A stretch of DNA of 64,000 nt, from the NCBI GenBank assembly GCA_963665845.2, contig OY762492.1, positions 3,200,001 through 3,264,000 on the forward strand, read 5' to 3'. Each line of letters opens with the position of its first letter. The first letter of the stretch is position 1. Positions 2,015 through 51,691 of this stretch are shown here, piece after piece. The position numbers were made by a program, and so were the translations under genes. The notes under the pieces are model-generated. The model was given only the letters and a program-made list of their open reading frames with translations, was not told the DNA's origin and ran no database searches. Source of the DNA: Candidatus Poribacteria bacterium (lineage in GTDB: Bacteria > Poribacteria > WGA-4E > GCA-2687025).

Positions 2015-3115
2015 TCATTCGCCGTCCTGCGAAGTTGGACTATTCGGGCTGCTGTCCGCCGCTTTCAACGCTCCCCATTCCGCTTTTTTTTTACCCGCTG
2101 GGTCTACGGAGAGGAAGCGGCTCTTGCCCGCCAAGACCCATCTCGTATCTAAAATGCGGCCGTCCAAAACATGCCGAACCTCCTTCGTATCGATATGCAT
2201 CATGTAGATGCCCTGCACATCCTTGCCGCCCTGCTTCACAAACGATGTGTAAACGAGCCATTTGCCGTCCGGCGACCAGTCCTTTGGAAAATCGCCGATC
2301 TCGTTAAAGGTAAGCCGTTCGACGTCAGACCCGTCCGGACGCATCGCATAGATCTCCGCGTCATGCCACCGCTCAGGGTCAGGGACACCTGAGCGGTTGG
2401 AGGTAAAAGCGATCCATCTGCCGTCAGACGACCAGACCGGGTCGTAGCTGTCGAAACCGTTCGATTGCGTTAGATTTGTGCGGTTTTTGCCGTCCTTGGC
2501 GTAGATCGTATAGACGTCAATGTACCCTGTGCCTGGCAACGCTCTGAAAACGATCTTTTGACCGTCCGGCGACCATCTTGGAGCCCAGTTATGGCTTGTC
2601 GGAATGTGCGTTAATCGAATCAGTCTGCGCGAGTTCACATTCAACTTGTAGATGTCGTCATCGGGCCCGATCCCTCCCGCCGTAGCGAGCCATCTGCCGT
2701 CCGGCGACCAGCTAAGTTGAGTAAAGGTCAACTCTATCGGGAGAGAAGCCCATTTCTTAAGGTTTGTCGCCCGCCCCGTCGCTAGATCAAGAACATAGGG
2801 GGTGTAGCTTTCGTCGGTCGGATCAAACATGACGGTCGCCGCCCGCTTGCCGTCCGGCGACCATTTTACGCCGCCTCCAAAGCTCGTCTTTCCGCCGGTG
2901 TCCATCCATAGCCGTTCGTTTTCGCCGTCCGCATCGACAAGCCAAATCTGAAACGTGCGATGCCGAACAGGATCCATCTTCTCAAAAGAGAGAGTCGGCT
3001 TTTCCAGCTTCGTCACATCCTCAAGCGGTTTCGGCGGATGAGCGACCGCAAACGCCGAAGGGGAGCCAACCAGCAGCAGAACGAAAGAGAGCGCGGCAAA
3101 CGTCCAAATGCGCAT
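2015..3115 (-). CDS. Secreted TolB-like/PD40 beta-propeller protein with conserved C-terminal tag
   Basis: Signal peptide, multiple WSPDG repeats, C-terminal GKSRFLSVDPAGKKKAEWGALK. Confidence 0.9.
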   Translation of the reverse strand: MRIWTFAALSFVLLLVGSPSAFAVAHPPKPLEDVTKLEKPTLSFEKMDPVRHRTFQIWLVDADGENERLWMDTGGKTSFGGGVKWSPDGKRAATVMFDPTDESYTPYVLDLATGRATNLKKWASLPIELTFTQLSWSPDGRWLATAGGIGPDDDIYKLNVNSRRLIRLTHIPTSHNWAPRWSPDGQKIVFRALPGTGYIDVYTIYAKDGKNRTNLTQSNGFDSYDPVWSSDGRWIAFTSNRSGVPDPERWHDAEIYAMRPDGSDVERLTFNEIGDFPKDWSPDGKWLVYTSFVKQGGKDVQGIYMMHIDTKEVRHVLDGRILDTRWVLAGKSRFLSVDPAGKKKAEWGALKAADSSPNSPTSQDGE

Positions 3116-3153
3116 GTTGGTCTCCTTTCAAGCTGAAGGGGCGCGTCCGCGCG

Positions 3154-4287
3154 TCATTCTTCGGCGGAGGCGTCCATTTCCTGCGGCGCCTTTTCAACGC
3201 CCGCTTCTTTCACCGCTCCCCACTGCGCTTTTTTTTTACCCGCTGGGTCAACGGAGAGGAAGCGGCTCTTGCCCGCCATGACCCATGCAACGTTGCGCGC
3301 CTGAACCCGCTTGATCAACTGAACCTCTTTCGTCGCGACGCGCAGCCGGTAGATGCCTTCGTCGGCAGGATTGTCCGTATCCGCAGGCTTGGACGAGGTC
3401 GAATAAACGATCCATTGAGAATCGGGCGACCAACTGGCATCGAATTCAAGAGCTGCGCTGAAGGTGAGACGCTCCACATCGGAGCCGTCCGGGTTCATCA
3501 TATACAGATCGGGTACATTCTTCGGCTCCGCGCCGTCCAGGACGGAGCGCCAGGAGCGAAAAACAATCTTCTTCCCGTCCGGCGACCATGACCGGACCTT
3601 ATCCAATGTCGGATGGTTTGTCAGATTGACGAGATTCGACCCGTCGGCGTTGACCGTATACACCTCATGGTTTACATGCCCCCCGTTTTCTTTCGGCTCG
3701 TTCAAGCCGTAGAACGCCAACCGTTTCCCGTCCGGCGACCAGACCGGATGGGAAGGTTGTAGCTTTGGGAAGTTCGTCATGCGGACATACCTTCCGTTAA
3801 CGGCATTCACTTTGTAGATGTCCGCGTGAATAATGGTGTTTGTGATGCGCCTGTCGGCGATGAGAGTGAGCCAAATCCCGTCGGGCGACCATGCGGCATG
3901 GATATAGTCGCCCGCGGCGTTCTGGGGCAGCCATTTCAACATGTTCTGGACGTTGCCGGTTTTCAGCTCAAGAACATACGGCGCGTAGTCGCCGTCGTAT
4001 ACGACCGCCGCGGCGCGTTTTCCGTCCGGCGTCCAGACAACGCCGCCAGAGAACCGCGCCTTGCCGTCACTGAGCCAAACTCGGTCGTTCTCGCCGTCCC
4101 AATCGATAAGGCGTATCTCGTATGCTTTAAGAGAGCGGTAACTGAGAGTCGGCTTGACAAGCTTCGTCACATCCTCTCTCGGCGTCGGCAGCGCGCCGAC
4201 TGCGGAAGCGCGCGAAGCTCCCGCCAACAGCAGCGCAGCGGCAACCGCGCAAACGGCGAACAATTCTGCGTTTCGGCGCATCATCAA
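3154..4287 (-). CDS. Secreted TolB-like/PD40 beta-propeller protein (paralog)
   Basis: Signal peptide, EDVTKLVKPT lead, WSPDG repeats, C-terminal SVDPAGKKKAQWGAVK. Confidence 0.9.
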   Translation of the reverse strand: MMMRRNAELFAVCAVAAALLLAGASRASAVGALPTPREDVTKLVKPTLSYRSLKAYEIRLIDWDGENDRVWLSDGKARFSGGVVWTPDGKRAAAVVYDGDYAPYVLELKTGNVQNMLKWLPQNAAGDYIHAAWSPDGIWLTLIADRRITNTIIHADIYKVNAVNGRYVRMTNFPKLQPSHPVWSPDGKRLAFYGLNEPKENGGHVNHEVYTVNADGSNLVNLTNHPTLDKVRSWSPDGKKIVFRSWRSVLDGAEPKNVPDLYMMNPDGSDVERLTFSAALEFDASWSPDSQWIVYSTSSKPADTDNPADEGIYRLRVATKEVQLIKRVQARNVAWVMAGKSRFLSVDPAGKKKAQWGAVKEAGVEKAPQEMDASAEE

Positions 4288-4468
4288 CTCCTTTTATGAA
4301 AACCGGGCGCGCAGCAAGCTCATTCGAAAAGGAACTTCGCGTCGTGATTCGGTCTCACAGCCTCCACGCCTGTCTCCGGCAGGCCATTTCCTTCTCCTCT
4401 GTATCGCACAATGGCTTTCGCCGGCGCGCAACAACGATTTCTGCGCAAGCGACTCCTTGCCTGCCCAG

Positions 4469-4497
4469 AATATAACATAGGCGCTCTCCCGATACAA
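4469..4497 (-). promoter_or_regulatory. Putative sigma70 promoter for the PD40 pair
   Basis: Minus strand TTGTAT-17 nt-TATATT with extended TG. Confidence 0.5.
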
Positions 4498-50554: not shown

Positions 50555-50647
50555 ACGCGGCAAATTCCCGGCGGGTCAAACTTGGCTCATAGGACGTACA
50601 TAATGCCAGACAACGCCGATTTCGTCAAGCGCGCCGCTCCACCCGGA

Positions 50648-50815
50648 TCGTCATTCCCGCGTAAGCGGGAATCTTAAGGCATCGCCGCGCCCGTCCTTTA
50701 AACCCCCTAGCCCCCCTTTTTAAGGGGGAATCAGAGGCGCGCCCATTTTCAAGGGGGAATCAGAGGCGCGCCCATTTTCAAGGGGGAATCAGAGGCGCGC
50801 CCATTTTCAAGGGGA
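50648..50815. repeat. Composite repeat ending in three tandem 29-bp units
   Basis: GTCATTCCCGCGTAAGCGGGAATC, CCCCCCTTTTTAAGGGGG, then AAGGGGGAATCAGAGGCGCGCCCATTTTC x3 (50722-50808). Confidence 0.9.
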
Positions 50816-50863
50816 AGCGGGCGCAGCGCGCCGCGAATATGCCCGCATGGGCGTACTGCCGCT

Positions 50864-51691
50864 CTAACTGCCGCTCGGCGTCTTCAGCATGCCCCATGTA
50901 ACAGGCGCTCGATGCAGCGGGTTCACTGAAAAGGACATGTCCATCCATTGCTTCAATTCGGTCTCGTCCAGCGCGCGGTTGAAGAGCGCGAATTCGTCCA
51001 GAAGCCCCTTGAAATAGGAGCTGTTGTGCGCCCGTCCGCCGATAGAGGAGTTGTTGTCGTTGAAGATGATGGACGGGTTGCCCGCCCGAACCGCCATGCT
51101 GTCCGCTTCGACGCCGTTCACATAGATCGCCATGGTTTCGCCGTCGAAGGTTGCCGCCATGTGCGTCCACTGGTTTTCTTTGATGCCGAGATTCGGCAGC
51201 GTCAGTTTCGTGTCCACATCGGCGCCATCAAACGGTCCCATGCGGTCGGCGCCGCCGGGTCCTGTGTTAAGGTAGAGGCAGGCGCCGCTTCCGCCGAGCA
51301 GGACGAATTCGACCGAGTCGTCGCTCGCGCCGGATTTTTGGTAGATCATGTTACCCCATGTGTGGCATGTTCCGCCGTCAAAAATTTCGGACGGGTTCAC
51401 CCACGCCATCGCGGTCAACTGCTCAACATCGAGTCGGTCGTCGTCCGGGACGACCGCGATGCCCGATTCCAACTCGACGCCGCCTCCGACTCGTCCGTCC
51501 GCCCATTTGAAGTCTCCGTTGAAGGTCGCTTCAAAGTTGTTGGGGCTGCTGTCGGCGGCGGTTTCTCCTCTGCCCTCTTCAAAGGCGAGATAGAGAATGA
51601 GCGCGTCCTCGCGCGGCAGTTCATCGGCGGCGGAGAAGAAAGGCGCGGCAAAAAGAACGGCAACAGCGCATGCCGTCAAAAAACGTTTCAT
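50864..51691 (-). CDS. Secreted LamG-like (concanavalin A/glucanase) domain protein with C-terminal tag
   Basis: Signal peptide, LYLAFEEG, TAMAWVNP, WTHMAATFDG, YVNG, GLLDEFALFNRAL; ends SVNPLHRAPVTWGMLK. Confidence 0.9.
   Translation of the reverse strand: MKRFLTACAVAVLFAAPFFSAADELPREDALILYLAFEEGRGETAADSSPNNFEATFNGDFKWADGRVGGGVELESGIAVVPDDDRLDVEQLTAMAWVNPSEIFDGGTCHTWGNMIYQKSGASDDSVEFVLLGGSGACLYLNTGPGGADRMGPFDGADVDTKLTLPNLGIKENQWTHMAATFDGETMAIYVNGVEADSMAVRAGNPSIIFNDNNSSIGGRAHNSSYFKGLLDEFALFNRALDETELKQWMDMSFSVNPLHRAPVTWGMLKTPSGS

Follow-up and report, generated by a model that had tools for sequence, protein, structure and literature searches.

What purpose does a short peptide serve when it recurs near the C-termini of secreted proteins of unrelated folds, all encoded in one stretch of a poribacterial genome? 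The stretch, hereafter the window, comprises 64,000 nucleotides of Candidatus Poribacteria bacterium (GCA_963665845.2, contig OY762492.1, positions 3,200,001-3,264,000), for which an original prediction, made from the DNA alone, had proposed a C-terminal tag read by a dedicated export or anchoring system. We find that this 18-residue tag is real and uncatalogued, and we establish its C-terminal position, its portability, its presence throughout the phylum, its co-occurrence with T9SS genes (those of type IX secretion) and its sharing of the slot of the T9SS C-terminal domain (CTD). From sequence and predicted structure, we propose that it works as a miniature T9SS signal in place of the roughly 90-residue CTD, a reading to which we assign a probability of about 0.5.

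Six tagged proteins in the window

Six-frame translation of the window recovered all six tails of the original prediction, with the same spacing, on five PD40/TolB-like paralogs and one Laminin_G_3 (LamG) protein:

2015..3115, minus strand: PD40/TolB-like beta-propeller protein, 366 aa, signal-peptide-like N-terminus, tagged
2063..2113, minus strand: its tag LSVDPAGKKKAEWGALK, then 15 aa
3154..4284, minus strand: PD40 protein, 376 aa, signal-peptide-like N-terminus, tagged
3208..3258, minus strand: its tag LSVDPAGKKKAQWGAVK, then 17 aa
18317..18643, plus strand: 5'-truncated PD40 gene fragment (by tblastn), 108 aa, without a signal peptide, still tagged
18539..18589, plus strand: its tag LSVNPAGKKHAQWGEVK, then 17 aa
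18682..19770, plus strand: tagged PD40 protein of 362 aa, counted from its probable start; the frame is open from 18640
19675..19725, plus strand: its tag LSVDPAGKKKAEWGALK, then 14 aa
41830..42939, plus strand: PD40 protein, 369 aa, signal-peptide-like N-terminus, tagged
42844..42894, plus strand: its tag LSIDLSGKKHEQWGDIK, then 14 aa
50864..51691, minus strand: Laminin_G_3 (ConA-like) protein, 275 aa, signal-peptide-like N-terminus, tagged
50882..50932, minus strand: its divergent tag FSVNPLHRAPVTWGMLK, then 5 aa; the canonical form is found in orthologs

The tails had been described as the ends of their proteins, which is nearly so for the LamG protein, with 5 residues to follow, but not for the PD40 proteins, in which another 14-17 mostly acidic residues come after the tag. 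The carrier at 18317-18643 is a fragment, its tblastn match being limited to residues 250-361 of the intact neighbouring paralog. As the five PD40 carriers are paralogs, the window alone offers only two independent folds.

A portable C-terminal tag across the genome and phylum

From the six tails we built an 18-column hidden Markov model (HMM), which went through four rounds of iteration, with no positional filter, over the 76,104 six-frame segments of the genome. It returned 121 matches of at least 10 bits, and 121/121 lie within 30 residues of a stop codon; reversed segments gave 4 matches at that threshold and 0 at 15 bits or more. The consensus is L-S-V-[DNE]-P-x-G-K-x-A-x-x-W-[GA]-x-L-K, with W conserved in 100% of the tags, K in 99%, V in 94%, P in 91% and S in 88%.

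We retained 125 matches of at least 9.2 bits, of which 117 are proteins of at least 150 residues, in a genome with about 3,250 predicted genes. Once stripped of their tails, the carriers group by blastp into roughly 22 families (seven fragment clusters set aside), the largest of which hold 41 PD40, 25 LamG and 16 ConA-like members, with many small ones besides. A Pfam scan of 41 of the 77 listed non-PD40 carriers and degenerate-tag candidates found domains that include 3keto-disac_hyd, NPCBM, CBM9, CBM_4_9, GH43_C2, PKD, AhpC-TSA, DUF4960 and a reprolysin-like one, and many of the scanned carriers match no Pfam family. With families beyond PD40 and LamG and zero internal matches, the tag fits the expectation of a C-terminal signal that is shared among secreted proteins of unrelated folds.

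The expected co-occurrence with signal peptides is found as well: a home-made heuristic detects one in 100 of the 117 full-length carriers, compared to 477 of 2191 background open reading frames (72/117 and 503/2647, respectively, with automatic start calls). A transmembrane-like stretch after residue 45 and a lipobox-like motif occur in one carrier each. Proteins bearing the tag alone are small (158-464 aa, median 267), and 67 of the 117 adjoin another carrier. A search of the genome for untagged paralogs found none for the 25 LamG carriers and, for the other families, mostly fragments or copies with decayed tags.

An AlphaFold model of the window's LamG protein (23 alignment rows, predicted template modelling score 0.77) agrees with the earlier suggestion that the motif lies beyond the folded domain. 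The final domain helix spans residues 243-251, and residues 255-275 follow it with a predicted local distance difference test (pLDDT) score below 50 and a short helix over the W..K core. On this model we reject the tail as a closing strand of the LamG domain. Among the 13 of 24 LamG homologs examined, close orthologs have a canonical tail and distant, non-Poribacteria ones end at the domain.

At the level of the phylum, an alignment of 60 tails has matches in 121/121 sampled genomes, from 11 to at least 67 per genome. Homolog names likewise assign the organism to Candidatus Poribacteria, in line with the similar tails that the original prediction ascribed to Poribacteria-like genomes. None of 60 tails compared matches NCBIfam, no T9SS model in NCBIfam or Pfam is hit, and Pfam gives only two single-member matches (E 0.03 and 0.11). 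An ESM Atlas search with the tail returned only hypothetical proteins with scores below 0.9, sequence searches of the PDB with the long tag and with a short cousin described below gave nothing meaningful, and no description of the tag was found in the literature searched, most subscription papers and supplements lying outside its coverage.

A short cousin in other phyla

A GTDB pattern scan for the short cousin TWGxIKA[LIFM][YF] yielded at least 122 stretches, and the motif falls within 4 residues of a stop in 106 of the 122 matches listed. Among the 80 stretches with listed titles, the C-terminal cousins bear the labels Eisenbacteria, Krumholzibacteria, Latescibacterota, Zixiibacteriota, Ignavibacteria, Rhodothermus/Roseithermus, Chlorobiaceae, Calditrichia, KSB1, Neomarinimicrobiota, Gemmatimonadetes, Bacteroidetes, Poribacteria, unclassified and, in one case, Alphaproteobacteria. 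At 33 of the first 80 cousin loci, the carrier is one conserved protein of about 135 residues with a signal peptide, an Ig-like domain and the cousin tag TWGSIKAMFR:

33 loci within L070-L145, for example L073:2695-3030: ~135-aa Ig-like tagged protein; labels Ignavibacteria, Rhodothermus, Chlorobiaceae, Calditrichia, KSB1

This protein has no Pfam or NCBIfam match and was not found in the Poribacteria genome studied here; it has 399 homologs, and the named ones among the best 120 of these are almost all hypothetical. Of 301 genomes sampled within one of these phyla, 91 have its tail pattern, 89 of them as a single copy (control, 1). In 19 loci its gene adjoins one conserved gene for a protein of about 200 residues, which we take to be Maf-like.

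Two further observations concern the cousin. At L076, L083, L117 and L142 there is a second small tagged family of about 130-145 residues that ends in TWG[KR]IKALF[RK], with a conserved neighbourhood of its own and no family match. The core TWG[RK]IKAM[FY] also occurs inside a long conserved protein, presumably translation initiation factor IF-2, at L068, L069, L075, L100, L112, L130 and L143, which we treat as coincidence.

Links to the type IX secretion system

The genome encodes an SprA-like protein of 2,198 residues (TIGR04189, E 1e-53, 182 bits; cut-off 200), two PorU-like proteins that combine C25 and CTD (320 bits; cut-off 420), at least 10 PorV-family barrels and 53 TIGR04183 matches to type A CTDs, the cargo of which has a median length of 918 residues. 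SprA-like matches are present in 61/61 genomes of the phylum, none above the cut-off, and GldK matches are partial and below theirs. In a quick-method tree of 39 PorV-family rows with long branches, the syntenic PorV ortholog C1:1875397 groups only loosely with canonical PorV. Immediately downstream of it lies a DUF5683 protein (C1:1876620-1877258; L005:6620-7255), a homolog of which is present in 5/5 PorU-PorV regions examined from other phyla, making it a candidate for an undescribed T9SS accessory.

A first link between tag and T9SS is the fusion of the tag to a CTD. W[GA]x[LIV]K stands immediately before the PNPFNP of a CTD in 34 of the 61 genomes of the phylum (0 in a reversed control), and an upstream V[EN]P segment, which was outside the search pattern, is present in 11 of the 12 tag-CTD loci examined. 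These loci comprise about four cargo types, as judged by eye; a profile-profile comparison of the hybrids gives a probability of 94.8%, and the modelled CTD of a hybrid has P. gingivalis PorU as its best PDB match (6za2, E 1e-4). In the genome studied here, the W-motif precedes the CTD in 17 of 57 CTD proteins (background 0.4%). Tandem arrays of nine (C1:1881487-1902675) and six (C1:950154-963938) WD40 proteins have a shortened W[SA]D[VIF][KR] helix some 20 residues before the CTD, which may be a decayed tag.

Tag and CTD also share domains. The tagged 409-residue protein at C1:1739067-1740296 has its signal peptide and first domain in common with two CTD proteins of 1,500-1,600 residues (E ~1e-95 and ~1e-92). 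When the small tagged protein is compared without its tag, its Ig-like domain has counterparts immediately ahead of the CTD in a pair of cargo proteins from one locus (E 8e-7 and 8e-5), ahead of tag and CTD in this genome's S8 protease (0.0015) and, weakly, ahead of the CTD in another cargo protein (0.024). The two signals divide by size, with the tag on proteins of 158-464 residues as against the median of 918 for CTD cargo.

In 49 genomes that we chose from the 80 titled loci, those with the cousin tag have an SprA match in 45/45 cases tested (43 above the cut-off), and those with the internal motif only in 0/4. The tag itself starts with [GSA]-[VIL]-[DENQS] in 64 of 75 non-PD40 carriers, a motif low in information that appears to resemble the PorU cleavage site, for which one study gives the consensus PT/GI with a small residue at +1 (PMC11969387).

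Comparison with known C-terminal signals

The closest parallel is the type A CTD (TIGR04183, PF18962; FlgD_ig-like PF13860 as a variant). Like it, the tag is found at the C-termini of putative Sec substrates with unrelated folds, takes the same slot behind the same domains, where it can sit fused directly before the CTD, and co-occurs with SprA, PorV and PorU homologs (SprA and PorU scores being strong but below curated cut-offs); its small-aliphatic start may also resemble the PorU site. It differs in being 18 residues of predicted coil and short helix, whereas the CTD is a beta-sheet domain of 50-90 residues, either an Ig-like beta-sandwich or a 3-strand sheet, and in being restricted to small cargo and tolerating an acidic extension.

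Other classes offer partial likenesses. The sortase-type systems (LPXTG/sortase, PEP-CTERM/exosortase, GlyGly-CTERM/rhombosortase and MYXO-CTERM) rely on a signature motif followed by a transmembrane helix and a basic cluster. The peptidase that reads the motif is often encoded nearby. As in these systems, whose signals each occur on unrelated secreted proteins that number dozens to hundreds in a genome, the tag is a short portable C-terminal motif, but it has neither the transmembrane helix (1/117 carriers with any later such stretch) nor the basic cluster that would follow it, and it has no NCBIfam match; the genes next to its carriers showed no cognate intramembrane peptidase. According to PMC10202324, T9SS accepts more than one signal class, with type B and C signals of about 100 residues or more, some of them read by cognate PorV-like barrels, and type B cargo adjoining its own PorP/SprF gene. 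The genome studied here has at least 10 PorV-like barrels; unlike type B signals, the tag has no TIGR04131/PF13585 family match and tagged genes have no barrel neighbour. Short CTDs are known from Prevotella intermedia (PMC11969387).

Proposed mechanism and alternatives

If the tag is a miniature T9SS signal, we infer a route of three steps. A tagged protein would be exported by Sec to the periplasm, where its short helix W-[GA]-x-[LIV]-K, a prediction of low confidence, would fit into a pocket conserved in the SprA/PorV-family machinery, with small single-domain cargo (median 267 aa) taken through the translocon by the tag and large cargo (median 918 aa) by the CTD. In the third and weakest step, a PorU-like C25 protease would cut at the upstream small-Val-acidic triplet and might then link the cargo to a glycan on the surface.

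This route would employ the resident T9SS-like machinery, to which the evidence points, and not the dedicated system of the original prediction. The 287 genes that neighbour carriers here include no conserved peptidase or transporter and no recurring peptidase family such as a sortase, exosortase or rhomboid, no genome-wide search for these families having been made. No tagged gene lies within two genes of a PorV/PorP-like barrel. Complex prediction, which covered one barrel of at least ten, C1:1875397, together with a 31-residue tail, scored 0.00 in both runs (mark 0.32) with the controls not folded, which counts for neither side.

Several observations weigh against the T9SS reading. The T9SS signals studied so far are all folded beta domains of at least 50 residues according to PMC11969387 and PMC10202324, and the column frequencies of the tag show no motifs B, D (GxY) or E of the type A CTD. 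In a hybrid modelled from a 13-row alignment, the tag is unpacked on its own CTD (pLDDT below 50). Tag-CTD fusions are a minority, mostly one per genome; hybrids make up at most 1 of 24 top CTDs examined in five relatives, and another search found them in 0/45 genomes. The 17 CTD proteins of this genome with the W-motif are not independent because 16 are WD40 paralogs, the other being a protease, and the fact that one protein can carry both signals suggests that tag and CTD are not simply redundant. Kinship among the genomes confounds the co-occurrence with SprA, for which there are only 4 controls, searches for the motor genes GldL and GldM gave no match (nor did any positive control respond), and no candidate reader emerged from the neighbourhoods of tagged loci in other phyla or of SprA in 15 genomes. 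Finally, the alignment of long tag and short cousin spans only 9 columns (probability 35%), so that a shared origin, though likely, is unproven.

We consider it possible, though somewhat more apt to fail than to hold, that there is a wider, peptide-sized class of T9SS signal. An ancient single-copy Ig-like protein of about 135 residues would dock by its TWGxIK helix on the motor-less T9SS of non-Bacteroidia, and in Poribacteria, Eisenbacteria, Krumholzibacteria and Latescibacteria that helix would have become a tag of general use, exporting and anchoring small lectin-like proteins by the dozens to hundreds. In that case 18 residues could suffice to bring folded proteins through SprA with no folded CTD.

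More doubtful is that the tag is a non-cleaved docking peptide, neither an export nor a cleavage signal, by which lectin-like proteins are held or piggy-backed on a conserved protein of the envelope, perhaps a T9SS subunit or else a carrier with a CTD. Proteins with tag and CTD together would fit such a division of labour, and the acidic extensions of the PD40 proteins and the internal tags of hybrids indicate that a free C-terminus is unneeded; the conservation of W and K and the retention of the small single-copy tagged protein in 91/301 genomes of another phylum, like a machine subunit, point the same way. However, the conserved small-Val-acidic triplet and the variable linker resemble a cleavage site, the tag takes the place of the CTD on the same domains, and its unpacked state in the hybrid model is evidence against docking too.

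We think it unlikely that the tag forms an amphipathic helix by which periplasmic or surface proteins attach directly to the membrane or lipopolysaccharide, with no protein reader. MinD and FtsA have similar membrane-targeting helices, and the predicted helix over the W..K core has W and L on one face and basic residues nearby. Yet it is residue identity that is near-invariant (W100, K99, V94, P91), not a mere pattern, the mean hydrophobic moment over 115 tags is a low 0.27 (no control set), and within our sample the tag is confined to SprA-bearing genomes.

There is also little to recommend a type II secretion signal like that of the GlyGly-CTERM cargo of Vibrio. A complete GspC-M-like operon with ATPase, pseudopilins and secretin is present at C1:2723095-2737817, which also counts against the T9SS reading, and GspD is above the cut-off in 12/12 Poribacteria tested, but it is so in 0/44 other tagged genomes, 5 of which have no secretin match at all, whereas SprA matches occur in all 45; the tag, moreover, has no transmembrane helix. 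That the tail is a structural domain end, or a leftover of truncated CTDs that has no function and was spread by gene duplication, is very improbable and largely refuted: one PD40 family does account for 41 carriers and many carriers are adjacent (67/117), but the tag is shared by some 22 families with unrelated folds, lies beyond the fold in the LamG model, is absent from distant non-Poribacteria LamG homologs and is conserved in 121/121 phylum genomes.

Other genes in the window

The window also encodes, on its plus strand, a pair of secreted tandem paralogs of about 630 residues (8100-9986 and 10030-11931; 68% identical) that match SpoIVB peptidase S55 and have no further copy in the genome, and an Eco57I-type restriction-modification methylase of 968 residues (22431-25337).

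Implications

Kamke et al. 2014 (PMC3909097) noted TIGR04183 tails in poribacterial genomes but found no Por structural genes, and the SprA-, PorV- and PorU-like genes found here bear on the question that they left open. With many genes in every sampled genome, mostly for carbohydrate-binding-like modules, the tag probably defines much of what these cells, members of a dominant sponge-symbiont phylum, display or release. The single-copy cousin in records labelled Rhodothermus, Melioribacter and Chlorobiaceae makes the problem approachable in cultured bacteria. If the tag is a true T9SS signal, it would be far shorter than any described, would change the view of what the translocon recognizes and would provide a compact tag for surface display.

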